NCBI GenBank assembly: GCA_032250835.1 | Contig: JAVVEA010000002.1 | Coordinates: 176,415-240,414, forward strand | Length of the DNA stretch: 64,000 nt | DNA from: a bacterium | Lineage (GTDB): Bacteria; SAR324; XYD2-FULL-50-16 | Direction: 5' to 3' | In this document: positions 3,499 through 35,525 of the stretch, in pieces | How positions within the stretch are numbered: the stretch's first letter is position 1 | Layout: every line of letters starts with the position of its first letter | The notes under the pieces: generated by a model | What the model was told of the DNA's origin: nothing | Databases searched by the model: none | What the model saw: the letters and a program-made list of their open reading frames with translations, nothing else | Made by a program: the position numbers and the translations under genes

Positions 3499-4512
3499 AT
3501 GACTGCGAAAAAGATGAACAAACCCGCATTCTACAAAGCACTCAACGACCCGGACTTCTATCCCGAAGCGAACCGGCAGATTAAGTGCGACGAATCCAAC
3601 TCATTTTGGATTTTTAAGACCGGACCCTGGGTCTATAAGGTCATGAAACCGGTCCCTAAATTGAGCCCGATGCTTCAAGAGGCCTACCTCTCGGAGCTGG
3701 TTGCCGCCTCAAACCGCCTTTCGCCGCAACTGGAAACCAGCATGACCGGCTTGGTCGGCGAAGGGGACCAGTGGAAGCTTGCCAGTGGTTTGGCGCCTGG
3801 AGCAGCCCCTTTTTATGTGCTCAAACAAAAGCAACTGACCGACCGTGGGTTCTTAGACCAGCTCTTAGCTAAAGATAAACTGGGTGCCAAGCAAGCCAAA
3901 GACGTAGCTAAGGCTCTTTGGACCTTCCACGAAGGCCTGGGGCAAATCAATCCCAAAGAAGCGCCGGGGCCTGACGAGCTGCTAGAAAAGCTAAAGGACC
4001 TCTATTACCAGTCCAAAAAGTTCCTGGGCCAAACCTTGACCAAGGCCATGGTGGACCTCAGCACCCGTCCCTTGGAGGTTTATCTGACAGACCGCAAGAA
4101 GCTGCTGGCCCGCCGGGTCCGCAAGGGGTTTGTGAGTTATTACCACGGTTCCTTAGACCTCAAACGGGTCCATTGGGCCTCCGACGGGGTGGCCTTCATC
4201 GCTAAGAGTGAAGAGGCCGTCAAGGACCGTTATGGCGACCGGATCAGCGACCTGGCGGATCTTTGTGTGGCTTTGGAGCATGAAGGAAAAGGCGAGTGGT
4301 CCCAAGTTTTGGTCGAAGAATACCAAAAACACTGTGGCGACCCGGACGTTGCCGAGTTACTGCCCCTTTACCGGGCTATGCGCACGCTTAAGATGGGCCT
4401 ACATCATTCGGTGGTCATGGGCCTCGGCGGTCCTGAAGCCGAAGTCGAAGCTGAGAAAGCGCTGGCCAAGAGCTATTTTGAACAGACCGTAATCATTGCT
4501 AACAGTTTGTAA
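3499..4512 (+). CDS. Hypothetical protein, possibly a degenerate protein-kinase-like fold
   Basis: 337 aa. VYKVMKP (VAIK-like Lys), EAYLSEL (alphaC Glu), HGSLDLKRV (HRDLKPEN-like loop), SDGVAF (DFG-like). Motifs are degenerate. Stop at 4510-4512 lies 1 nt before the next gene's ATG. Confidence 0.45.
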   Translation: MTAKKMNKPAFYKALNDPDFYPEANRQIKCDESNSFWIFKTGPWVYKVMKPVPKLSPMLQEAYLSELVAASNRLSPQLETSMTGLVGEGDQWKLASGLAPGAAPFYVLKQKQLTDRGFLDQLLAKDKLGAKQAKDVAKALWTFHEGLGQINPKEAPGPDELLEKLKDLYYQSKKFLGQTLTKAMVDLSTRPLEVYLTDRKKLLARRVRKGFVSYYHGSLDLKRVHWASDGVAFIAKSEEAVKDRYGDRISDLADLCVALEHEGKGEWSQVLVEEYQKHCGDPDVAELLPLYRAMRTLKMGLHHSVVMGLGGPEAEVEAEKALAKSYFEQTVIIANSL

Positions 4513-4513
4513 T

Positions 4514-7225
4514 ATGAAGAGATTGGTGCTTGTCCTGCTGGCCCTTTTGGTCAGCGGGTCTTTGATGGCTGAGCGCTTTGTGCCGCACTCGGACCTGATT
4601 CCTCATGTGTTGGAGTTAGTCAACCGGGGCTATGTGGACCAGAACCGCGCCCAGCCCTTGAAAATGCTCGAAGGGGCTTTAGAGCGGGTCAGCGCTGCGG
4701 TGGCACCGGTCTTGACTCGGGTGAAAACCCTTGATGGGAAGGTCATCATCGAGGTCCATGTCGATAAGTTCGATAAAACCATCACGGCCAAGATCCCCAA
4801 AGACCTAGGTGAGCTGAATGGGCTGTTGCAGGAGGTGGCCTATTTCATCAAACTGCACCTGAACAATGACGATGACCCTGGCGAGGTGGACTACGCCTTA
4901 ATCAACGGCTTCTTAAAGCAGCTCGACCCCCACACCACCCTATTGGTGCCCGACGTCTATTCCGAATTCTCCACCAGCACCAGTGGGAACTTTGGTGGCG
5001 TGGGCATGATGATCGGTCTACGAAAAGGCGACCTGACCATCATCAGCCCGATCGACGGCACCCCGGCCAGCCGCGCCGGACTACGCGCCAAGGACCGGAT
5101 CGTCCAGATCGATGATGAATCAACGGTCAACATGTCGCTCAGCGACGCGGTCAAAAAGTTACGCGGCGAGATCAACACCAAGGTGGTGATCTACATTCTG
5201 CGCGAAGGCATCGCCTCGCCGAAAAAGGTGGTGATCACCCGGGCCTTGATTAAGGTCAACTCAGTGGAGTCCCACGTTTATGAAGTGCAAGGTAAGCGGG
5301 TGGGTTATATCCAACTCAAAACCTTCCAGAAAAACACCATCGAAGAAATCAACGAAGCACTCGACGGGATGGACTACGACCTCAACAGCTTCGGCGGGTT
5401 GATCTTAGACCTACGCAATAACCCAGGTGGTTTGTTGTCCCAGGCGATTCAGGTGAGCGACCGCTTCATCAAAAAAGGTGTGATTGTCGCTACGGCCGGT
5501 TTAGATGCCGGTTCGGTCCAGGCCTACAAGGCCCAATGGTTTGCTAGCTTAACCGAGATCCCCATGGTGGTCTTGATCAACACGGGCTCGGCCTCGGCCT
5601 CAGAGATCGTCACCGCTGCATTGAAGAAAAACGACCGCGCTGTGGTCTTGGGCAACCGCTCTTTCGGTAAGGGATCGGTCCAGCAGGTGATCCCCCTGCC
5701 CGGCGGTTCCGCGCTGAAGATGACCACGTCAAAATACCTGACCCCCGGCAATATATCGATCCAGTCGGTGGGCGTCAGTCCTCATATTGAGGTGGTTCCC
5801 TACTATATCTCCAAAGACTTTGTGCGGGTCACGCCCGAATCACCGGACTCCACCGAAGGCAGCCTGGACGAAAATTTCGCCGAATGGGGCGACAAAGCTG
5901 AAGACCCCGAACGGACCGTTTTTTATCTCTTCAAAGAAGAACCGAAAATAGAAGAGGGCCACGAGCCTGAAGAGCCCATTGACGAAAGCGAAGAGGCCAA
6001 ATGGGAGCGTTTGGGCGAAGACTTTTTGGTCCAAAGCGGCCTGAATATCTTAGCCAAGAACGACAGCCCCCGGCAGCCCAAATTGCTCGCCGAGGCTCAC
6101 CGGTACATGATCGCAGAGGAAAAAGGGCAAGAAGAAAAATTGGCCCAGCGCTTCAAGGAGTTTGACACCGACTGGACCGCTTTGCCCCTAAAAGGCCAGC
6201 CCAAGTTGGCTGTAGACGCTTGGTTAGAAGTCAAAGAAGGCGAGCAATGGAAGCGCAGCAAGGGACCCCTCAAAGCCAAAGACCAAGCACGTTTCCACCT
6301 GAAGGTGACCAATCAAGGCGGCGGCAATGCCTCCCGCTTGATCGCCACCAGCAAGAGCGAAAACCCCATCTTTGACGAACGACAATTCGCCTTTGGCAGC
6401 CTCAAGCCCGGCCAAAGTTCCGAGTGGTCGGTGCCCGTTGAAGTGCCCGAAGGCGTGGTTGCGCGCAACGACCGGGTGGAATTTAAATTCACCGACCAGC
6501 GCGAGAAGGTCTTGGCGAGCGACGAACTGGCCGTTGGGATCGAACCCCGGCCTTGGCCCAGCTTCGCCTATAAAATCACCTTTACGGACCAGGGTCACGG
6601 AGCCAGCGGCAACGGAGACGGTTTGGTGCAGCCCGGCGAAACCATTGCCGTGAAGGTGGAAGTGACCAACCAGGGTGCCGGTGACGCCAGCAAGGTGACG
6701 CTGCTCTGGAAAAACGGCGAAGGAGAAAAGGTCTTTTTGAAAAATGGCCGGATCAACTTAGAGGACCTCAAGGCGGGGCAAAGCAGCACCGCTTGGTTCC
6801 TCTTTGACTACAAAGAAAAGGCGCTCGACGGGGTCTTGGACTTTAGTTTTGACCTGCTCGACTCGGTTTTCCCGCTGGCCTCAGCGAACCAGAAGATCAA
6901 GCTGCCTTTAGACCAAAAGAACTTTAGCCTGAGCAACGGTTTGGCCCAGTTTAGTTTCTCCAACGCCGATCCGGTGGTTTCGGGCCACCAGCTGCTGCTA
7001 AAGGGTCAAGTAGCAGACCCTAACGGGGTCAAAGATGTCTATGCCTTCGTGGACAAGACCAAGGTCTACTACCAAAACTTTGAAAGCGACGCCAAAACCA
7101 CGGCCGCAGACTTCCAGATTCCCCTGGAATTGGGTGCCGAGAGCAACCGGGTGATTTTAGTCACCCGAGACCGAGCCAACGTGGCGGTGCAGAAGACTCT
7201 GTTCATCCGCAAAGCGGCGAAATAG
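4514..7225 (+). CDS. S41 family C-terminal processing (tail-specific) peptidase with a C-terminal extension carrying two CARDB-like domains
   Basis: Signal peptide MKRLVLVLLALLVSGSLMA. PDZ/S41 core (GMMIGL, DLRNNPGG, GSASASEI, GKGSVQ). Then two VTNQGxGxAS motifs (HLKVTNQGGGNAS, VEVTNQGAGDAS) typical of CARDB. Confidence 0.8.
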   Translation: MKRLVLVLLALLVSGSLMAERFVPHSDLIPHVLELVNRGYVDQNRAQPLKMLEGALERVSAAVAPVLTRVKTLDGKVIIEVHVDKFDKTITAKIPKDLGELNGLLQEVAYFIKLHLNNDDDPGEVDYALINGFLKQLDPHTTLLVPDVYSEFSTSTSGNFGGVGMMIGLRKGDLTIISPIDGTPASRAGLRAKDRIVQIDDESTVNMSLSDAVKKLRGEINTKVVIYILREGIASPKKVVITRALIKVNSVESHVYEVQGKRVGYIQLKTFQKNTIEEINEALDGMDYDLNSFGGLILDLRNNPGGLLSQAIQVSDRFIKKGVIVATAGLDAGSVQAYKAQWFASLTEIPMVVLINTGSASASEIVTAALKKNDRAVVLGNRSFGKGSVQQVIPLPGGSALKMTTSKYLTPGNISIQSVGVSPHIEVVPYYISKDFVRVTPESPDSTEGSLDENFAEWGDKAEDPERTVFYLFKEEPKIEEGHEPEEPIDESEEAKWERLGEDFLVQSGLNILAKNDSPRQPKLLAEAHRYMIAEEKGQEEKLAQRFKEFDTDWTALPLKGQPKLAVDAWLEVKEGEQWKRSKGPLKAKDQARFHLKVTNQGGGNASRLIATSKSENPIFDERQFAFGSLKPGQSSEWSVPVEVPEGVVARNDRVEFKFTDQREKVLASDELAVGIEPRPWPSFAYKITFTDQGHGASGNGDGLVQPGETIAVKVEVTNQGAGDASKVTLLWKNGEGEKVFLKNGRINLEDLKAGQSSTAWFLFDYKEKALDGVLDFSFDLLDSVFPLASANQKIKLPLDQKNFSLSNGLAQFSFSNADPVVSGHQLLLKGQVADPNGVKDVYAFVDKTKVYYQNFESDAKTTAADFQIPLELGAESNRVILVTRDRANVAVQKTLFIRKAAK

Positions 7226-7254
7226 TTGCAATTTGTTGCCGGGACTGGTAACAA
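7226..7254 (+). promoter_or_regulatory. Sigma70-like promoter (TTGCAA, 17 nt spacer, TAACAA) for the 7371 gene
   Basis: Hexamers and spacing read from the sequence. Leaves a ~110 nt leader ending in the AAAGGAGAG Shine-Dalgarno. Confidence 0.3.
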
Positions 7255-7370
7255 TCGAGAAACTCAGAACTACCTGCTTGAGCGGTTCAGATGGCAACGA
7301 GGGAAGCCCTCTGAAGTGATCGTTCAAGTTAATTGAGGTTATCCTCAAATCGACCGAAAGGAGAGCAGCA

Positions 7371-9212
7371 ATGGCACGCGAGACCTTCACCAGGGGCCCC
7401 AATTACGTACACCCCGAAAAACCCTCAGCAGTGGGCTCACGCAACAGCTTGAACCGCACGGACCGCAACGAGTACGAAGAGGCCAAACAGGTTATTGACG
7501 AGGAAGTGGATAAGATCATCAACCACATCCACGCCAAGCTTCCGCCCGAGGTGTTGGAGCGCCTAGATGTGATGGGTTCGATCAAATCGAAGCTGCACAA
7601 CTACTTCAACCAAGATTTCCAGAACATGCTTAACCGCTATATCGTCACTATGGAAGACGAGATGGCGAAGAAGTTTCGGGATTTGGTCGACAAGGAAGAG
7701 AACCGCGCCTTAGCGGGCTACACCCCCCGAGGGATCACCGATATTTTAGAGCGCATCGGCGCGGCCGATAACCTCAATACCGGTGAGATTGAGCGCAGCA
7801 TCGTCAACATGTACGGCCATTTGCAGGGCCATATCGAGCGGGGCGTACGCGATCTTGAGGCGCACACCAACTCCTTGTTGCGCGAAAAGAGCGACGTCGG
7901 TGCCTTTGTGCGCGGCGACAACAGCTACGCCATCGTCAAATGCAGCTTCCGCGACAACCACAAGCGCCCCAAGGCGGTGATGGACCTGAAGCTTTCGATC
8001 AGCATCTTAGACTCAGAACTGATCAGCCCCATCTACCACTACCAAGTGCCCGTGACCTCTTTGGTCAAAGACGTGGTCGCCAAAAACATCCACAGCTTGA
8101 TCGACAAAGAGATCGACGAGTTGGCCAATGAGCGGATGGAAGCAGGCCAAACCTTAGGCGACCAGGACAAAGTCTTCGAGAAGTTTAAGGTCTTAGACAA
8201 GTACGTCAGCGACGAAGACGAGGAAATCCGCTACCAGTTCGTGGCCAAGCGCTTCTTGGACGCTGTCGAAGGCATCGGTGCCGAGATCGACGCCCAAGAC
8301 TACGACGCTCTGGGTATCCGCGAGAACATCAAAAAGATCATCGATAACCAGAACCTGCGCAACCGTGGCTTCAACACGGCGGTCAATGCCATCACCGGCA
8401 TTTTGGACAACAGCCGCATGGGTTATCAGTTCATCGAGAACTACAAAAACGCCCGCGAATGTGTTATCCGCGAGTATGAAGACGAAGATGAATACCGCTT
8501 GCCCGACGAGCGCTACAGCATCCGCTTGGCCTATTATGACCAAGAACAATTAAGCAGCCTACGCGGAGCTTACTTGAAGCAGGTCGAAGAACTGGACCGC
8601 GAAGTCAAACATCTTTGGGACGTCTGCGAGGGCATCTACAAGTCTGACCGCAGCAACAAGGGGTATGACGATTGGGAAACCTTATCTAAGAAGATGTTGC
8701 AGGGCGTCCCTACCGCCGCCGCTGCCGACAAGAAGAAAAAGAAGAAAGGTGAGCCCGAGGTGGCCGAAGAGGTTGAAGTCGCTCCTGAGAAAGAAGCCGC
8801 TTGGAACGAGATCAGCTTCATTGCCCCGGAAGTGACCCATGTGGACGAGAAGAACCCCACCTTGGAGCACAAGCTACAAGAGGTGGCTAACCGGTTCCCC
8901 TTGATGGCCGAAAAGATGACCAAAGTCTTCCACGACCAAAACGACGAAGTCCGTGTGGTGGTCGAGAAGCGTCTGGCTTTCTTAAAGAGCCAGTTCGAAG
9001 AGTTCAGCAACCTGATCAACCCCTTCCATATCCAACCGGGGTTGCTGTTGGACATCGACATCACCAGCATCAAGAAAAAGCAGACCACCATGAAGAACAT
9101 GTCGAACGTGATCAACGAGTTCCTCTATTCGGTCAGCAAAGGCTTTACTGATGAAGTGTTCTTGGGCTTCAACGCGCAAGAAGACATCACCCGGTCCGAG
9201 ATGGCCTCTTAA
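7371..9212 (+). CDS. Hypothetical 613-aa highly acidic, coiled-coil-rich soluble protein with no recognisable domain
   Basis: Strong Shine-Dalgarno AAAGGAGAG. Strong preference for C-ending two-fold codons (aac, gac, atc, ttc, cac). Internal AAAADKKKKKKGEPEVAEE linker. No transmembrane segment or signal peptide. Followed by an intrinsic terminator. Confidence 0.7.
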   Translation: MARETFTRGPNYVHPEKPSAVGSRNSLNRTDRNEYEEAKQVIDEEVDKIINHIHAKLPPEVLERLDVMGSIKSKLHNYFNQDFQNMLNRYIVTMEDEMAKKFRDLVDKEENRALAGYTPRGITDILERIGAADNLNTGEIERSIVNMYGHLQGHIERGVRDLEAHTNSLLREKSDVGAFVRGDNSYAIVKCSFRDNHKRPKAVMDLKLSISILDSELISPIYHYQVPVTSLVKDVVAKNIHSLIDKEIDELANERMEAGQTLGDQDKVFEKFKVLDKYVSDEDEEIRYQFVAKRFLDAVEGIGAEIDAQDYDALGIRENIKKIIDNQNLRNRGFNTAVNAITGILDNSRMGYQFIENYKNARECVIREYEDEDEYRLPDERYSIRLAYYDQEQLSSLRGAYLKQVEELDREVKHLWDVCEGIYKSDRSNKGYDDWETLSKKMLQGVPTAAAADKKKKKKGEPEVAEEVEVAPEKEAAWNEISFIAPEVTHVDEKNPTLEHKLQEVANRFPLMAEKMTKVFHDQNDEVRVVVEKRLAFLKSQFEEFSNLINPFHIQPGLLLDIDITSIKKKQTTMKNMSNVINEFLYSVSKGFTDEVFLGFNAQEDITRSEMAS

Positions 9213-9237
9213 GGCTGTTTCGCCACCGCAACCAAAT

Positions 9238-9275
9238 CCCCCCGGACCCCATCTGTGGAGTGCGGGGGGTTTTTT
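9238..9275 (+). terminator. Rho-independent terminator (CCCCCCG...CGGGGGG followed by TTTTTT)
   Basis: GC-rich stem plus T6 run immediately after the 7371..9212 stop. Confidence 0.7.
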
Positions 9276-9289
9276 CGTTATAGGCCCCC

Positions 9290-10246
9290 ATGTACGTTTT
9301 GGAATTTGAAAAGCCCATTGTGGCGCTTCGGGCGAAGATCGAAGAACTCCGTTCGATGATGGAAGACGGAAACTTAGAAGGTTCTGAAGAGATTGAGCGG
9401 CTTGAGCAGAAGGCCGCTCGTTTAGAAGAAGAAACCTTCAAAAACCTAAGCAACTGGGATAAGACCCTGCTAGCGCGCCACCCCGGCCGCCCAGACACCC
9501 TAGACTTCATTGAACTGGCCACCGAAGATTTCCAGGAATTACACGGCGACCGAGCTTACCGCGATGACCCGGCGATTGTCGGCGGCTTTTGCCGGATTGA
9601 TGGCCAGCGGTTTTTGGTGGTTGGCCACCAGCGGGGCCGCAACACCGCCGAAAACGTGCGCCGTAACTTTGGCATGGCCCACCCCGAAGGCTACCGCAAG
9701 GCCTTGCGGTTGATGAAGACCGCCGAACGGTTTGGGATACCCATCTTGACGCTGATCAATACTAAGGGTGCCTATCCCGGCATGAGTGCCGAAGAGCGCG
9801 GCCAGAGCGAAGCTATTGCGGTCAACTTGCGCGAGATGGCCGCTATGACGGTGCCCATCATTGCTGTGGTGATCGGCGAAGGCGGCTCCGGCGGAGCCTT
9901 GGCCTTGGGCGTGGCCAACCGGGTTTTGATGTTTGAACATTCCATCTATTCGGTGATCAGCCCCGAGGGCTGCGCCTCGATCCTTTTTAACGATTCTACC
10001 CGCGCCCAAGAAGCCGCCACGGCGCTTAAGTACACCGCTAAGGAATTACAGAAGTTCAAGATCATCGATGGGATCGTCCCCGAGCCCATCGGCGGAGCCC
10101 ACGCCAATCCTCAAGAGGCGATGGACAGCTTGAAAAAGGCGGCGTTGCGCCACCTGACCCAATTAGAGAATTTAACCAGCGACGAACTGATCGAGGACCG
10201 CTATGAGAAATTCCGGCAAATCGGGGTCTTTGCCGAAAGCGAATAG
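9290..10246 (+). CDS. accA: Acetyl-CoA carboxylase carboxyltransferase alpha subunit
   Basis: 318 aa. LDFEKPIVALRAKIEEL-type N-terminus, and PEGYRKALRLMKTAERFGIPILTLINTKGAYPG matching AccA. Confidence 0.95.
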   Translation: MYVLEFEKPIVALRAKIEELRSMMEDGNLEGSEEIERLEQKAARLEEETFKNLSNWDKTLLARHPGRPDTLDFIELATEDFQELHGDRAYRDDPAIVGGFCRIDGQRFLVVGHQRGRNTAENVRRNFGMAHPEGYRKALRLMKTAERFGIPILTLINTKGAYPGMSAEERGQSEAIAVNLREMAAMTVPIIAVVIGEGGSGGALALGVANRVLMFEHSIYSVISPEGCASILFNDSTRAQEAATALKYTAKELQKFKIIDGIVPEPIGGAHANPQEAMDSLKKAALRHLTQLENLTSDELIEDRYEKFRQIGVFAESE

Positions 10247-10251
10247 GCTCT

Positions 10252-11586
10252 ATGAGCGGCCTGTTTCTTACCGCCAATGAATGGGCCTTAGTGGCTCCCG
10301 GTCAGCAGCTGCGCGTTCCGCGCAGCGAGCCGTTGGATGTGGGCTTGGCCGGGTTTTTTGCTCAAGCGGCACAATTGCTCTCGCCGGACGCCCGCAAGCT
10401 GGATCTAGTCATAGACCAGAGCCTCTTCCATTTTCTCTCCCTACGCCTGCCGCTGTCGGCGGCCCGCAGACTCCAAGCACTCCTGCCTTTTGAACTAGAA
10501 AACCACCTGCTGATGCCGGTCGCGAAGCTGAATCTGCCCTATGAGCGCCGCCTAGATAAACAGCAGTCGGTGACCTGGGTGGCTATCTACGGGGTAGAGC
10601 GCGAATGGCTGGCTCATCTACGGAAGTTGGCGGGTGAGGCGGGCTTGGAGCTAAAGCGGGTCTTTGCTCTAGAGAACTTATTGGGGCTCGAAATGCCTCC
10701 GCAGGCTAGTGGCCTGCACTTACGGTTATGCCTGGAGTCCGGCTTGGCCCGCTTGCTGCTCTACCGCGACGGCTTTCCTACCGCCTTCAGTAGCCTGGAA
10801 ATCGCCGAAGGGGAAGGCTTTGAGGCCTATCAAGCCTGGGTCAAGGACCTCAATGCCGTGATCGCCGCTGCTGGTTTGGAAGAAGGAGCTTTAAACCTAA
10901 GCTTGGACCGCAGCGCCCAGTTGTATTTTGAGGTCGAGGACAACCGACTGCAACTGCGCCAACCCTTTGAACCCAAACCACTGCCCTCGGCGGCAAGGGC
11001 CGAACTGTTGGCCCCGGCTTTGCTCAAGCGCAAAGGCTTGGTTCCTTTGATGGCCGAGCAGGGGGCTTGGCGCAAAGAAATCATCAAACATAAAAGCCAA
11101 TTGATCCGCACAAGCGGCTTTGCTGCGGGCTTGGGTTTGCTCTGGGTCTTATGGTTAGGGTTGGGGCTAGTTCAGGGCAATAAACAGGTAGCCCGCCTAC
11201 AAGCTCAGTATGCCCAAGCCTTGTCCCAAGTAGCCCCGGGCCTGAACCCGACCAATGGATTAGAAGTATTGCAAGAACGGGTGGCCAGCCTCAAAGGCAG
11301 CGCCGCCGGCACTGCGGCGGAGCCCTACCTCAACAGCCGCCGGTTAGCCGAGTTATCAAGTCTACGCGAAAAGGCCCCCAGCTTTGAGTTGAAGCGCCTC
11401 TCGGCGAAAGGCAAAGATTGGACGTTAACGGGCAAAACCACCTCGGCACAGGACTTAGAAAAGGCCAAAGTCGAATTGCAGCGTCTCTTTCCGGCCGAAA
11501 GCTACGGCATGAGTCTTTCGCAACAAGCCAAAGGAGACTCTGAGGTTAACTTTTCGATCAGTCTAGTCCACAAGGGGGGCCGATGA
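10252..11586 (+). CDS. gspL: Type II secretion system protein L (GspL-like)
   Basis: Cytoplasmic domain with LLPFELENHLL and WVAIYGVEREWLAHLRKLAGEAGLELKRVFALENLL, resembling the GspL ALPFALEEQL / WLxxLxxAGL pattern. Single transmembrane helix near residue 285 (FAAGLGLLWVLWLGLGLV), then a ~140-aa periplasmic tail. Confidence 0.55.
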   Translation: MSGLFLTANEWALVAPGQQLRVPRSEPLDVGLAGFFAQAAQLLSPDARKLDLVIDQSLFHFLSLRLPLSAARRLQALLPFELENHLLMPVAKLNLPYERRLDKQQSVTWVAIYGVEREWLAHLRKLAGEAGLELKRVFALENLLGLEMPPQASGLHLRLCLESGLARLLLYRDGFPTAFSSLEIAEGEGFEAYQAWVKDLNAVIAAAGLEEGALNLSLDRSAQLYFEVEDNRLQLRQPFEPKPLPSAARAELLAPALLKRKGLVPLMAEQGAWRKEIIKHKSQLIRTSGFAAGLGLLWVLWLGLGLVQGNKQVARLQAQYAQALSQVAPGLNPTNGLEVLQERVASLKGSAAGTAAEPYLNSRRLAELSSLREKAPSFELKRLSAKGKDWTLTGKTTSAQDLEKAKVELQRLFPAESYGMSLSQQAKGDSEVNFSISLVHKGGR

Positions 11587-12059
11587 TGGACCGGTTGAAC
11601 CCGAGGGAGCGCCTATTGGCCTATCTGGCTTTAGGCCTCTTAGGCCCGCTGATTTTATTTCGGTTGGTTTTGTTTCCTTTAATGGATCTGCGTGACCAAT
11701 ACCAAGCCAAGGCGGCCCGTCTGGAGAAACAGGTCCTTTTGGTGCGGCAACTAGGGGGCGAATTGCGCCAGTTACAAGCCAGCCAGCCCCAGCGCGCCGA
11801 AAGCTTAAATGGGCGGATTGGGCGAGTGTTAAGGGAATTGGATGTATTAGAGCGCGCCAGCTTGGCCAGCCAAAATGCCCAGGGCGGGGTCCAGAGTCTC
11901 TTGGTGCAGCTTGACAACCTAACCCTTTACGAGGCTTCGGCCGTGGTCTACCAGACCGAACATTTAAGGCCCCAGATACAAATCGAAAATCTTGACCTGA
12001 TGGTGAGTTTCCAAAATTCCGAGCGACTTAAGCTCTCGATGGTGGTGAGCGCGCCATGA
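11583..12059 (+). CDS. GspM-like inner-membrane protein
   Basis: 158 aa with one N-terminal transmembrane helix. Translationally coupled to gspL (ATGATG overlap). Size and topology fit GspM. Confidence 0.4.
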   Translation: MMDRLNPRERLLAYLALGLLGPLILFRLVLFPLMDLRDQYQAKAARLEKQVLLVRQLGGELRQLQASQPQRAESLNGRIGRVLRELDVLERASLASQNAQGGVQSLLVQLDNLTLYEASAVVYQTEHLRPQIQIENLDLMVSFQNSERLKLSMVVSAP

Positions 12060-12902: not shown

Positions 12903-13928
12903 ATGAAACGCTGGATTATTATCCTGGCTATCCTGGGGCTATTGTTGCCTGCTGGGTTGGGCCTTTGGCTGGTTGGTGGCTTAAACAGCGGCTACCAGGG
13001 ATATAGCGGCCCCGCTGCCGAGGTGGCCATTGAAAGCGGCATGAGTTTGGGGCATATTGCGGCCACCCTCAGCCAAGCTGGGGTGATCGAATCCGCCCGC
13101 CTCTTTAAGCTCGGTGCCCGACTGCGTGGTAAGGCCACCCTTTTTAAGCGTGGTTACTACCGCTTTGAGGGGGCTTTAAGTCCCTTAGAGGTGATGGACA
13201 TCTTAGAAGAGGGCCGCGAATTATTGGTCAAAGTGACGCTGCCCGAGGGGACCCGGATGCGCGATATCTTTGCGGCGGTCCAGGCGGCGGGCATCAAGAA
13301 CGAAGGGCGGTACGAGGATTGGGCCCAGGACCGGGGCTTTATCAAAAGCCTGAACCTGCCGGTCCAGCCGCCGCATCTTGAGGGCTTTTTGTTCCCTGAA
13401 ACCTATAGCTTCAGCCCCCGGGCCGACGAACGAAAGGTGATCTCGAGTATGGTCGAGATGTTTTTGCAGAAGATCCCCGGTGACTATGCCCGCCGGGCCG
13501 AGATGGTGGGGCTGAGTTGGTATCAGGCAGTGGTCCTGGCTTCGATCATCGAAAAGGAGACGGGCCGCGCCGAGGAACGTCCGGTGATCTCTTCAGTCTT
13601 CCATAACCGTTTGGCCCGAGGGATGAAGCTACAGACCGACCCCACCGTGATCTACGGCATTTCGGATTACCAAGGCAACATCCGGCGCAAACACCTCAAG
13701 GACAAAAATCCTTACAATACCTACGTGATCAACGGCCTACCGCCGACCCCCATCGCCAGCCCCGGCTTGGGGGCTTTAGACGCGGCCGTTGAGCCGGCGC
13801 AGACCAGCTATTTGTATTTTGTCGGCAAGGGCGACGGCAGCCATCATTTCACCACCAATTACGCCGACCACCAGCGGGCAGTGAAAAAGTACCAGCTGCG
13901 CCGTAGGCAAGACTACCGTTCCTATTGA
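12903..13928 (+). CDS. mltG: Endolytic murein transglycosylase MltG (YceG family)
   Basis: N-terminal transmembrane helix, YceG-like domain. Starts 1 nt after the gspN-like stop. Confidence 0.8.
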   Translation: MKRWIIILAILGLLLPAGLGLWLVGGLNSGYQGYSGPAAEVAIESGMSLGHIAATLSQAGVIESARLFKLGARLRGKATLFKRGYYRFEGALSPLEVMDILEEGRELLVKVTLPEGTRMRDIFAAVQAAGIKNEGRYEDWAQDRGFIKSLNLPVQPPHLEGFLFPETYSFSPRADERKVISSMVEMFLQKIPGDYARRAEMVGLSWYQAVVLASIIEKETGRAEERPVISSVFHNRLARGMKLQTDPTVIYGISDYQGNIRRKHLKDKNPYNTYVINGLPPTPIASPGLGALDAAVEPAQTSYLYFVGKGDGSHHFTTNYADHQRAVKKYQLRRRQDYRSY

Positions 13929-14003: not shown

Positions 14004-15146
14004 ATGAGTGAACCTGGAAACCCCTGGGGCAACCGCGGGGGAAAAAAGCCAGCCGATTTGGACGAATTGATCGCCAAGGGGCTCAAAAACCTTTTTGGCG
14101 GCGGCGGCAAAAAACCGGGCCCAATGGGTACCGGCGGCGGCGGTCCAAAGGACGCCAGCCCGAAGAACCTGGGCGGAATGGCCCTGTTGCTGGTCTTCGG
14201 TTTGATGGCCTATCTCTCAGTGTACCAGATCCAACCGGGCGAACAGGGGGTGATCCTCCGGTTCGGGCAGTTCCATAACACCAGCCAACCGGGCTTGAAC
14301 TTCCTGATCCCTTTCATCGAAAAGGTGATTAAGGTGGATGTAGAAACGATCCGTAAAGAAGAATTCGGTACCACCCGCACCACCAACCGCTTCGGTGAGC
14401 CGGTCTCGAATTCGGGCACGGACCTTCAGTCACTGATGCTCACGGCTGATTTAAACGTAATCCAGCTCAACTGGGTGGTTCAGTTTAAGATCCGCGACCC
14501 GGAGATGTTTTTATTTAACATCGAAAGCCCCCGGGCTGCGGTGCGTGACATCAACGAAGCGGTGGTCCGCCGATTGGTGGGCAACCGGGACTTCAACTAT
14601 GTCTTAAACAACCGCGAAGAACTGGCCGAATCGACCCGCCAAGAAATGCAGGACGTTTTAGACTCCTATAACTCCGGCATCCAGTTGGTGACCGTGCAGT
14701 TATTGGACGTGAACCCGCCCGACCCGGTGCGCCCCAGTTTTAACGAAGTCAACGAGGCCGAACAAGACAAGATCCGCTTGGGCAACGAGGCCCAGCAAGA
14801 GGCCAACCGACGCCTACCTAAGGCCAAGGGTACGGCCCGACAGATGGTCGAAGAGGCCGAAGGTTACGCCATCGAAAAGCTAAACAACGCGCGCGGTGAC
14901 TCGGGCCGTTATCAGGCGATTCTTGCTCAGTATAAAAAGGCCAAAGACGTCACCCGCACCCGGATTTATTTAGAGACGCTTAAAGAAGCGTTGCCCCAGG
15001 TGCAAGAGGTGATCATCGTGGACCAAACCAACAAGGGGATGACCCCGTTGATCAATATCGGCGCCGCAGCCGCGATCAACAACCAGAAGGCCGCAACCCA
15101 AACGACCAGCCCGACGACGACCTCGTCGAGCAGTCAAACCAACTAG
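14004..15146 (+). CDS. hflK: HflK (SPFH/band-7 modulator of FtsH)
   Basis: Gly-rich N-terminus, single transmembrane helix, band-7 domain, C-terminal Thr/Ser tail. Followed by hflC. Confidence 0.9.
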   Translation: MSEPGNPWGNRGGKKPADLDELIAKGLKNLFGGGGKKPGPMGTGGGGPKDASPKNLGGMALLLVFGLMAYLSVYQIQPGEQGVILRFGQFHNTSQPGLNFLIPFIEKVIKVDVETIRKEEFGTTRTTNRFGEPVSNSGTDLQSLMLTADLNVIQLNWVVQFKIRDPEMFLFNIESPRAAVRDINEAVVRRLVGNRDFNYVLNNREELAESTRQEMQDVLDSYNSGIQLVTVQLLDVNPPDPVRPSFNEVNEAEQDKIRLGNEAQQEANRRLPKAKGTARQMVEEAEGYAIEKLNNARGDSGRYQAILAQYKKAKDVTRTRIYLETLKEALPQVQEVIIVDQTNKGMTPLINIGAAAAINNQKAATQTTSPTTTSSSSQTN

Positions 15147-15154
15147 GAAACCAA

Positions 15155-16084
15155 ATGAACAAACAGGTAACCGCCCTGGTGGGCTTACTGGCACTCTTGT
15201 TCGTCGGGTTCAACTCGCTCTTTGTGATCAACGAAGGCGAACAAGCGGTGATCACCCGCTTTGGTGAACCCGTGCGTGGCCCCGTGGCTAAGGCTGGTCT
15301 CTACTTTAAGATCCCCATGGTCGAGAAGATCCATCTCTTCGACAAGCGGATCCTTAAATGGGACGGCGACCCCAACGAAATCCCCACGAAGGATAAAAAA
15401 TATATCTGGGTGGATACGACCGCTCGGTGGAAGATCGTAGACCCCCTGTTGTTCTTGCAGCGTATGGGCAGCATGAACCGGGCGAATATGACCATGTCCG
15501 ACTTGATCAACGGTGCCGTGCGCGACTTTGTGACCAAAAACAACTTGGTAGAAATCGTGCGTAGCTCCGACTGGGACGCTCAGTACATGATGACCACCGA
15601 AGAAGCCCGCGCCACCCAGGCGGTAAAGGTGGGCCGTGATGGTTTCTCGACCTTGGTCTTGAACACCGTGGCTGGTCGGGTTTCGGATTTTGGTATTGAG
15701 TTGCTTGACGTCTTGGTCAAGCGGGTCAATTATACCGACCAAGTCCGCGAAAAGGTTTATGCCCGGATGATCTCCGAGCGGAACCGGATTGCCACCCAGC
15801 GCCGCTCTGAAGGTGAGGCTGTAAAGGCCCAAATCTTGGGTGAAACCGAAAAAGAAATGAAACAGGTGATTTCTACGGCTTACAAAAGCTCACAGGAAAT
15901 CCGGGGTAAAGCCGATGCCGAGGCGACCAAAATCTTCGGTGAAGCCTTTAACAGTGATCCTGAGTTTTACCGCTTCATCGCCACCATGGAAGCCTACAAA
16001 ACCACCTTGGGGAAAAACACCCGCTTGGTGATCGACGCGCAGTCGCCGTTGTATAACTTCTTGGCTGGCGGCAAGGGCCGCTAA
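15155..16084 (+). CDS. hflC: HflC
   Basis: N-terminal transmembrane helix plus band-7 domain. Canonical hflK-hflC pairing. Confidence 0.9.
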   Translation: MNKQVTALVGLLALLFVGFNSLFVINEGEQAVITRFGEPVRGPVAKAGLYFKIPMVEKIHLFDKRILKWDGDPNEIPTKDKKYIWVDTTARWKIVDPLLFLQRMGSMNRANMTMSDLINGAVRDFVTKNNLVEIVRSSDWDAQYMMTTEEARATQAVKVGRDGFSTLVLNTVAGRVSDFGIELLDVLVKRVNYTDQVREKVYARMISERNRIATQRRSEGEAVKAQILGETEKEMKQVISTAYKSSQEIRGKADAEATKIFGEAFNSDPEFYRFIATMEAYKTTLGKNTRLVIDAQSPLYNFLAGGKGR

Positions 16085-34109: not shown

Positions 34110-35053
34110 TGGAGGCTATCGAGGTTAGTGCAGAAGACGCGGGCCAACGGCTTGACCAGTGGTTGGCCGCCCAGGTGGGTACCCGGAGCAAGGCCCAGCG
34201 CATGGTTAAGATGGGTTTGGTTTTGGTTGACGGAAAGGTTGCTCAAGCCGCCAAGATACCGGTAGCCTTAGGGCAACAGATCAGTTTCGAGTTGCCTCCG
34301 AGCTTGCCTGAGCGGGCCGTAGCGGTGGAGCATCCTTTGGATGTGGTCTATGAGGACGAGAGCATTATTCTTGTCAATAAACCACGGGGTGTGGTAACAC
34401 ATCCTTCGCCGGGACATAACGAAGACAGCTTGGTGAATTACCTGCTGCACCACACAGAACTGACCAAACAGGGGGGTATCCGGCCCGGCATTGTCCACCG
34501 TATCGACAAGGACACCTCGGGCCTGTTGGTGATTGCAAAGAATGACGAAGCCCAAGAACTCCTAGCCGAGCAGTTTCGAGAACACAGCATCGAACGCCGC
34601 TATTTGGCGCTGGTTTGGGGGGAGATGGTTCAGCCTTTGGGGATGATAGACCAACCCATTGGCCGGCACCCCAAGGAGCGCAAGAAATTTGCGGTGCGCC
34701 AGGGGGGCAAGCGGGCGGTCACCCATTGGAGACGAATTAAAAGCTACCGGAAACTGACGCTGATCGAGTGTCGGCTAGAGACGGGGCGCACCCACCAGAT
34801 CCGGGTGCATTTGGCCCATTTGGGTCATCCCTTGGTGGGTGATCCACTTTATGGACGCTACCGGGACCTAAGCCGAATCTATGGAAGTGAAATAATTTCG
34901 GCCTTAAAGTCCTTTAAGGGCCAAGCCTTGCATGCTACCAGCCTGGGCTTGATCCATCCGGCCACTTCCGAGGAAGTTTACTTTGAAGTGCCACCACCAG
35001 AAGAGCTGGCCCATTTGATCCGGCTCTTAGACGAGGATAACGGTGAAGGTTGA
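34109..35053 (+). CDS. rluD: 23S rRNA pseudouridine synthase, RluD/RluA family
   Basis: S4 domain plus HRIDKDTSGLLVIAKN catalytic motif. Confidence 0.9.
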   Translation: MEAIEVSAEDAGQRLDQWLAAQVGTRSKAQRMVKMGLVLVDGKVAQAAKIPVALGQQISFELPPSLPERAVAVEHPLDVVYEDESIILVNKPRGVVTHPSPGHNEDSLVNYLLHHTELTKQGGIRPGIVHRIDKDTSGLLVIAKNDEAQELLAEQFREHSIERRYLALVWGEMVQPLGMIDQPIGRHPKERKKFAVRQGGKRAVTHWRRIKSYRKLTLIECRLETGRTHQIRVHLAHLGHPLVGDPLYGRYRDLSRIYGSEIISALKSFKGQALHATSLGLIHPATSEEVYFEVPPPEELAHLIRLLDEDNGEG

Positions 35054-35525
35054 ATACATTAACCCTTTTATAATCGCCACCAAGAAGGTCCTTTCGACCA
35101 TGGCGTTCATGGAGTCCAAGCCCGGAAAGCCCGCGCTTAAAGACCCCACGAACCATAAGGCGATGGGCGATATCTCGGCAGTGATCGAACTGACCGGGGA
35201 ATCCAGGGGGTCGATCTCCATCAGCTTCACCCGCAATTGCATCCTCGCCGTGGCCCAGCAGATGTTCGGGCAAGAATATGCCGACATTGACGACGAAATT
35301 GTCGATATGGTCGGCGAGATTGTCAACATGGTTAGCGGCGAAGCCCGCCGCGAACTGGCCAAACTGGGTTTTCATTTCTCCGCCGGCATCCCCACTACCT
35401 CACAGGGCGAAGGCCACGACATCACCCACTTTGTTGAAGCTCGGGTGATCATGATCCCCTTCGAGACCCAAGCGGGCAAATATTACATCGAAGCGGCCTT
35501 CGACTCCAAGAAATTCCTGGGCTAA
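35043..35525 (+). CDS. CheX-like chemotaxis phosphatase family protein
   Basis: GTG start. MKVEYINPFIIATKKVLSTMA is a typical CheX N-terminus. 160 aa. Confidence 0.7.
   Translation: MKVEYINPFIIATKKVLSTMAFMESKPGKPALKDPTNHKAMGDISAVIELTGESRGSISISFTRNCILAVAQQMFGQEYADIDDEIVDMVGEIVNMVSGEARRELAKLGFHFSAGIPTTSQGEGHDITHFVEARVIMIPFETQAGKYYIEAAFDSKKFLG

Follow-up and report, generated by a model that had tools for sequence, protein, structure and literature searches.

A full-length CfpA-family protein encoded in the SAR324/Lambdaproteobacteria lineage

The 64,000-nucleotide stretch of contig JAVVEA010000002.1 (assembly GCA_032250835.1) analysed here, referred to as the window, carries a gene, cfpA, whose 613-residue product is by its sequence clearly a full-length member of the CfpA family of cytoplasmic filament proteins, a known family to which automatic annotation has already assigned it. 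We consider it likely (probability of about 0.8) that this gene, which appears to form its own transcription unit, encodes a CfpA-family cytoskeletal protein of Lambdaproteobacteria/SAR324 that most likely forms nucleotide-independent filaments, as in treponemes. Treponemal cytoplasmic filaments are located just under the cytoplasmic membrane, extend over the full length of the cell and run parallel to the periplasmic flagella (PMC13398306). A Treponema denticola cfpA mutant has no filaments; it shows filamentation, chromosome condensation and reduced attachment, and its virulence is lost (PMC3398590). CfpA function is poorly understood and was studied only in treponemes, which are hard to handle. 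An orthologue with approximately 50% identity in the abundant and environmentally important SAR324 lineage offers a test of flagella-independent filament function.

Family membership, host and distribution

An NCBIfam profile search matched the window protein to NF040882 (cytoplasmic filament protein CfpA, an equivalog model) with a score of 766.6 bits against a cutoff of 500 (E = 2e-230). The match was end to end, residues 7-611 aligning with profile positions 3-599 of 605. The first-pass annotation of this DNA had reported no recognisable domain and placed the protein in no family; the confident match to a characterised family overturns this. It had also guessed at an abundant structural or cytoskeletal protein, and the cytoskeletal part of that guess is borne out by membership of the cytoplasmic-filament family. 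A protein from a metagenome-assembled genome (MAG) deposited at NCBI is 100% identical to the window protein and already bears the name "cytoplasmic filament protein CfpA [bacterium]". PF27473 (PF27473.1) was present on every homologue listed in a large protein search. A Pfam-A scan gave no family above its cutoff because PF27473 is newer than the release scanned; a match to IFT20 (24.8 bits against a cutoff of 27) and other sub-cutoff matches were discarded as compositional or coiled-coil noise. A PDB sequence search with the window protein returned nothing relevant.

Pairwise comparisons with spirochete proteins, in which Treponemataceae sequences served as proxies, gave 51% identity over 611 residues to a 700-residue CfpA from a Treponemataceae MAG (P0281) and 52% over 611 residues to CfpA of the cultured Gracilinema caldarium (P0318). 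Identity was 47% to a protein of a Treponema sp. (P0290) and 37% to CfpA of a Spirochaetota MAG (P0134). Treponemataceae proteins scored 1195-1235 bits on NF040882. One further sequence, P0210, was tried as a Treponema representative and rejected, as it turned out to be a member of a distant subgroup.

By synteny and the identity of flanking genes, the host is a member of the Lambdaproteobacteria/SAR324 lineage and not a spirochete. The closest locus (L001) belongs to Candidatus Lambdaproteobacteria bacterium RIFOXYD2_FULL_56_26, and the order mnmG / orf337 / S41 / cfpA / accA / gspL-like / gspM-like / orf281 / yceG / hflK is common to both. Protein identities between the two loci were 40-86% overall and 63-86% for MnmG (73%), the S41 peptidase (63%), CfpA (86%), AccA (76%), GspM, YceG and HflK (71%). 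The window has a GC content of 55.9%, and the rest of it consists of chromosomal housekeeping genes, including those for DnaE, RibBA, RibH, RNase G, a pseudouridine synthase, a SurA-like peptidyl-prolyl isomerase, HflK/C, ABC transporters and CheX.

A distribution survey covering one genome per GTDB species found at least 580 stretches with a relative of cfpA, which contradicts the initial suggestion of a lineage-specific factor; the best 80 loci were examined. These came from SAR324, Lambdaproteobacteria, "Deltaproteobacteria" or unclassified MAGs at 50-87% identity and from Spirochaetota at 50-54%. The family is small, with 190 clusters at E <= 1e-3 among 1.84 billion representative proteins. 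Loci L001 to L029 represent SAR324/Lambdaproteobacteria-type genomes that carry the family. Some CfpA loci lie on long contigs (a 2.39-Mb chromosome for L010, a 982-kb contig for L018), which argues against a binning artefact, and housekeeping genes are found in conserved order beside cfpA in the window and its closest relatives. Reviews describe CfpA as exclusive to spirochaetes. This restriction does not hold and the literature statement needs correcting; family membership stands. In the literature searched, no paper paired SAR324 with "cytoplasmic filament", and none of those listed connected CfpA to SAR324 or Lambdaproteobacteria. What is new is therefore a lineage in which the CfpA family has not been studied or discussed, and not the name, which databases already apply to these proteins.

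A neighbour-joining tree, distance-based and unbootstrapped and thus giving a coarse picture only, separated a Spirochaetota clade from a SAR324-type clade made of three subclades (A, B and C). The window protein fell in subclade B; L055, labelled Spirochaetota, branched off basally in the SAR324-type clade. Two divergent cfpA copies, which lie on separate contigs and belong to subclades A and C respectively, were found in each of eight MAGs (L008/L052, L011/L028, L012/L036, L013/L025, L014/L029, L015/L023, L017/L022 and L018/L062). Since these MAGs have one copy in each of these two subclades, the A and C copies are paralogues. Among the best 80 loci, subclade B was represented only once per genome.

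Proposed transcription unit of cfpA

The gene and its immediate surroundings comprise the following features:

4496-7225, forward strand: gene for an S41/PDZ peptidase of 909 residues, upstream neighbour of cfpA
7226-7254, forward strand: promoter-like element, with a -35 box TTGCAA (7226-7231), a 17-nucleotide spacer, TG of an extended -10 element (7246-7247) and TAACAA (7249-7254)
7255-7370, forward strand: putative 5' leader of about 110 nucleotides, its start placed by the predicted start of transcription, with a Shine-Dalgarno sequence AAAGGAGAG at 7357-7365
7371-9212, forward strand: cfpA open reading frame (ORF), 613 residues, 70.7 kDa, pI 5.19, NF040882 and PF27473 family
9238-9275, forward strand: intrinsic-terminator-like element predicted by folding, a hairpin (9238-9269) followed by T6 (9270-9275)
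9290-10246: accA, downstream neighbour of cfpA

The ORF thus lies between the S41 protease gene and accA, as first reported, with an intergenic gap of 145 nucleotides upstream and a spacer of 77 nucleotides downstream. The Shine-Dalgarno sequence, also recognised at first pass as strong, ends 5 nucleotides ahead of the cfpA ATG, and a GGAG directly ahead of the ATG is kept in relatives.

The -35 box starts right behind the TAG stop of the S41 peptidase gene. Of the promoter originally proposed, TTGCAA-17-TAACAA, the letters are present; they agree with the sigma70 consensus at 4/6 and 3/6 positions, and a consensus promoter scan gave no match at this site. Because the scan gave nothing, we turned to phylogenetic footprinting, using 8 subclade-B loci from relatives with CfpA 65-87% identical to the window protein. 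In the intergenic alignment, the pattern TAG-TTGC..TT-N12-TG.TA was invariant at fixed spacing; the rest of the region between the S41 gene and cfpA was unalignable across the same loci. The invariant block is reasonable sequence evidence for a real cfpA promoter made of a -35 box and an extended -10 element (TGnTA).

Downstream, the hairpin CCCCCCG...CGGGGGG is followed by TTTTTT, which ends 14 nucleotides short of the accA start codon. The terminator seen at first pass is present, with a folding energy of -29.8 kcal/mol, though its z-score against dinucleotide shuffles was only -1.56. A consensus terminator scan did not list it because the stem is bulged. GC-rich hairpins were found at the same place 3' of cfpA in L001, L002, L004, L007, L009 and L041, several of them with a T-run. 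The conserved promoter footprint and the same-position hairpins in relatives support the view, already taken in the first-pass annotation, that cfpA is a stand-alone transcription unit. It would be transcribed alone from a sigma70-type promoter with an extended -10 element, transcription ending at the hairpin terminator; read-through from the S41 gene may occur. Rfam and tRNA scans of the whole window were empty, which leaves no known leader RNA element.

The share of C-ending codons among two-fold pyrimidine codons was 0.79 in cfpA, with a GC content at third codon positions of 0.76. This share ranked second among 49 long ORFs of the window, whose values lay between 0.35 and 0.80, mostly near 0.6. 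The codon bias described initially is partly borne out; its reading as a sign of high expression has no ribosomal-protein gene within the window to serve as a reference.

Predicted structure, conserved gene block and proposed function

The window protein is acidic (E 10.6%, K 8.0%, D 7.7%, N 6.2%), with 112 aspartate and glutamate against 86 lysine and arginine residues and a net charge of -26. Its sequence contains no Walker A or other NTP-binding motif, no signal peptide and no transmembrane segment, the highest 19-residue hydropathy (KD19) being 1.06. Composition and absent motifs agree with the earlier description of a D/E/K/N-rich protein lacking transmembrane and nucleotide-binding elements. 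Two segments stood out from the alignment and the AlphaFold2 (AF2) model:

7401-7460, forward strand: conserved N-terminal peptide, codons 11-30 (NYVHPEKPSAVGSRNSLNRT)
8691-8804, forward strand: variable disordered linker, residues 441-478, with a K6 run

The AF2 monomer, built from 45 homologues, had a mean predicted local distance difference test score (pLDDT) of 67.8 and a predicted template modelling score of 0.49; it contained 57% helix and 9% strand. Helices were predicted at residues 34-56, 66-115, 137-172, 228-257, 391-430 and 499-546, several of them 30-50 residues long, and three beta-hairpin or sheet elements at 186-213, 354-389 and 557-567. A Foldseek search of the model against the PDB gave no match at E <= 0.001. 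The predicted fold is mixed alpha/beta with compact sub-domains. The term "coiled-coil protein" used at first pass would therefore describe only part of it: the helix content and the long helices fit, and the three beta elements do not.

Cross-phylum conservation was found in the N-terminal peptide and in residues 41-110, 330-390 and 551-590. Residues 11-30 (..HPEKPSAVGSRNSL..) are near-invariant between Spirochaetota and SAR324, with 67-73% cross-phylum identity, yet have a pLDDT of 33-43 and are predicted to be disordered in the monomer. Because it is conserved all the same, we suggest that this peptide takes part in interactions, perhaps as a contact between subunits or for anchoring. The SAR324 orthologue also shows which residues are constrained in both phyla, above all those of this peptide. 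The poly-lysine linker mentioned in the first-pass annotation is also present: the K6 run covers residues 454-459 (nucleotides 8730-8747), pLDDT is below 50 at 445-478 and identity drops to 11-12% in blocks within 441-470. The linker is probably a flexible spacer, and its K6 run does not appear to be a family feature.

Almost every Spirochaetota locus has, next after cfpA, a gene for a protein of about 340 residues and then one for a protein of about 878 residues resembling pyruvate phosphate dikinase (PPDK). The ~340-residue protein had no Pfam or NCBIfam match; the PPDK-like protein scored 646-684 bits on TIGR01828, below its cutoff of 843 bits. The same two genes lie directly upstream of cfpA in subclade C and in L010, so that the order is inverted between the two phyla, and the C-terminal 108 or so residues of the ~340-residue protein are 55-67% identical across phyla. 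Examples of this three-gene block, all outside the window, are:

L030, 10001-15708
L079, 10001-15848
L024, 6250-11845
L010, 6265-11803

In T. pallidum, TP0748 (cfpA) and TP0746 (PPDK, 901 residues) share a strand and are separated by about 1.1 kb (PMC3373638), and these published coordinates fit the block. The ~340-residue protein, encoded for example at 6250-7293 of L024 and 12142-13197 of L079, is a candidate CfpA partner. Neither its gene, nor a PPDK-like gene, nor a second cfpA is found anywhere in the 64-kb window.

We propose the same polymerisation and a comparable role for the window protein because it is 51-52% identical to its Treponemataceae counterparts over its full length and scores above the equivalog cutoff. 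The protein would self-assemble into filaments without nucleotide. These would run beneath the cytoplasmic membrane along the cell and would contribute to cell division and to the organisation of the chromosome (nucleoid).

Several points weigh against this proposal. Filament formation, cellular location and role are predicted for the SAR324/Lambdaproteobacteria protein by homology, and high expression by codon use. The C-terminal extension of treponemal CfpA (about 70-90 residues) is absent, the window protein having 613 residues as against 678-700. Confidence of the AF2 model is moderate at the mean pLDDT given above, and the treponemal comparison was made with close Treponemataceae relatives standing in for the T. 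pallidum and T. denticola proteins. The genes for the ~340-residue and PPDK-like proteins are not part of the subclade-B loci. If the ~340-residue partner is needed for assembly or anchoring, the function of the window CfpA may differ from that of the treponemal protein.

The alternative that fares best, which we consider unlikely but worth keeping in mind, is a CfpA homologue by descent with another role in SAR324, such as a nucleoid-associated or scaffold protein that forms no spirochete-style ribbon. It would suit a lineage without reported periplasmic flagella for filaments to follow, and both the shorter C-terminus and the missing partner and PPDK-like genes are in line with it. The three SAR324 subclades and the two paralogues in 8 MAGs leave room for sub- or neofunctionalisation, and mutation of cfpA in T. 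denticola affects the nucleoid (PMC3398590). What speaks against a changed role is the 51-52% identity over the full length and the score above the NF040882 cutoff; conservation of the N-terminal peptide and of residues 41-110, 330-390 and 551-590 across phyla also argues that strong purifying selection has kept the structure and its interfaces the same.

A canonical intermediate-filament-like coiled-coil rod of the crescentin or FilP type, with a short head and tail, is very improbable. Long predicted helices (66-115, 137-172, 228-257 and 391-430) and the weak sub-threshold IFT20 match, of coiled-coil type, would suit such a rod, and the literature describes CfpA as "intermediate-like", with much predicted coiled coil (PMC2776988). 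The predicted beta elements at 186-213, 354-389 and 557-567 break the helices, however; the AF2 monomer contains no single rod, and no intermediate-filament or crescentin Pfam profile matched. Rod domains are, moreover, typically far less conserved than 50% across phyla.

We give practically no credence to a cytochrome c oxidase subunit II or TPR-repeat protein, names found on older NCBI and JGI records of close relatives, as the identity is refuted by the absence of any corresponding Pfam profile match even at E <= 10, the window protein has no transmembrane segment, and the very proteins so named carry PF27473 and match the CfpA model. Many CfpA-family records in NCBI, UniRef and JGI bear one of these two names, among them P0022, P0027, P0029, P0031, P0038, P0044, P0049, P0107, P0284, P0301 and P0337. 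This looks like propagated misannotation, and the present assignment supplies a correction for the widespread subunit II name. A further CfpA-family record, P0127 (841 residues, 46% identical to the window protein), is filed under the freshwater mussel Potamilus streckersoni as a hypothetical protein; the mussel assembly probably contains bacterial contamination or a contig from a symbiont.

With filament formation by the window CfpA as the preferred reading, a broader and more tentative idea, to which we would give somewhat less than an even chance, is that the CfpA filament system is no invention of the spirochetes but a cytoskeleton that two phyla have in common. SAR324 and Lambdaproteobacteria genomes have one or two copies each, and in one SAR324 subclade cfpA adjoins the same ~340-residue and PPDK-like genes as in Treponema, which points to a three-gene module that was either transferred en bloc long ago or inherited by both phyla. 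If SAR324 does build such ribbons without periplasmic flagella, filament function would not be tied to flagella, and the ~340-residue neighbour would become the prime candidate for the anchoring or bridging structure visible in treponemal tomograms. Taken alone, the gene is ordinary; what is of further use, as leads for CfpA biology, is the distribution outside spirochetes, the paralogy and the cfpA/~340-residue/PPDK block.

Neighbouring genes and comparison with known systems

Further features around cfpA, and a chemotaxis gene farther along the window, are:

3499-4512, forward strand: orf337, no Pfam or NCBIfam match
10252-12059, forward strand: weak GspL-like and GspM-like genes, both below Pfam cutoffs, directly behind accA
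between the GspM-like gene and YceG/MltG: gene for a 281-residue protein
12903-13928: YceG/MltG, downstream of the gene for the 281-residue protein
14004-16084: HflK/HflC-type SPFH genes, downstream of YceG/MltG
35043-35525, forward strand: gene for a CheX chemotaxis phosphatase

The 909-residue S41/PDZ peptidase encoded upstream of cfpA scored 720 bits on TIGR03900 ("MXAN_5808 family serine peptidase", cutoff 661 bits) and carries CARDB-like repeats in its C-terminal part. The adjacency of its gene to cfpA is kept throughout subclade B except in L010. We considered orf337 and the 909-residue gene as the conserved neighbours of about 340 and 870 residues; the sizes agree, but the latter encodes an S41 peptidase and no PPDK-like protein, and orf337 was rejected as a member of the ~340-residue partner family at an hhalign probability of 0.13%. 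The orf337 gene is syntenic upstream of the S41 gene, with 33-54% identity, in the subclade-B loci L001-L007, L009, L027 and L041. Subclade-C loci, too, have a YceG gene some 3-4 kb downstream of cfpA. The CheX gene is a hint of motility and chemotaxis in this organism; no flagellar genes lie within the window to indicate a flagellar type.

Within its own phylum-level lineage, the window protein can be set beside the subclade A and C members of the family (for example L013/L025 of MAG JACZRV and L017/L022 of MAG JACZVE), to which it is 50-58% identical. Subclade C has a protein of about 345 residues and a PPDK-like protein encoded directly upstream of cfpA and a CfpA of 630-659 residues, whereas the subclade-B cfpA of the window lies between S41 and accA. 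In subclade A the gene stands in an unrelated context, unlike that of subclade B.

Reviews group CfpA with intermediate-filament-like coiled-coil proteins (PMC3296230, PMC2776988). Crescentin, FilP and Ccrp resemble CfpA as presumed nucleotide-free cytoskeletal filament proteins that are helix-rich and acidic. They have no sequence or profile similarity to it, CfpA is predicted to be mixed alpha/beta and not one heptad rod, and its conservation is much higher than that of proteins of this type.

The closest known system is CfpA of treponemes (T. pallidum TP0748, T. denticola and T. phagedenis), whose filaments are reportedly about 5-7 nm wide. The window protein aligns with Treponemataceae CfpA over its full length at the 51-52% identity noted above. 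Common blocks are the N-terminal HPEKPSAVGSRNSL, NRY(I/M)VT.EDEM and LPDERY, and further GFNTA.N.IT.ILD..(K/R)MGYQ(F/Y)IEN.KNARE and INP(F/Y)HIQPGLLLD(I/V)DITSIK. Like its treponemal counterpart, the window protein is acidic, predicted to be cytoplasmic and free of a nucleotide-binding motif, and its gene has its own promoter-like element. T. pallidum CfpA has 678 residues (PMC3373638) against 613 here, the extra treponemal length being the C-terminal extension, and the K6 run of the window linker is not shared by relatives. The genetic context also differs, with S41 peptidase - cfpA - accA in the window and cfpA - ~340-residue protein - pyruvate phosphate dikinase in spirochetes. Unlike the treponemal hosts, in which the filaments have been seen, the host is of the Lambdaproteobacteria/SAR324 type, in which the system is known through its genes.

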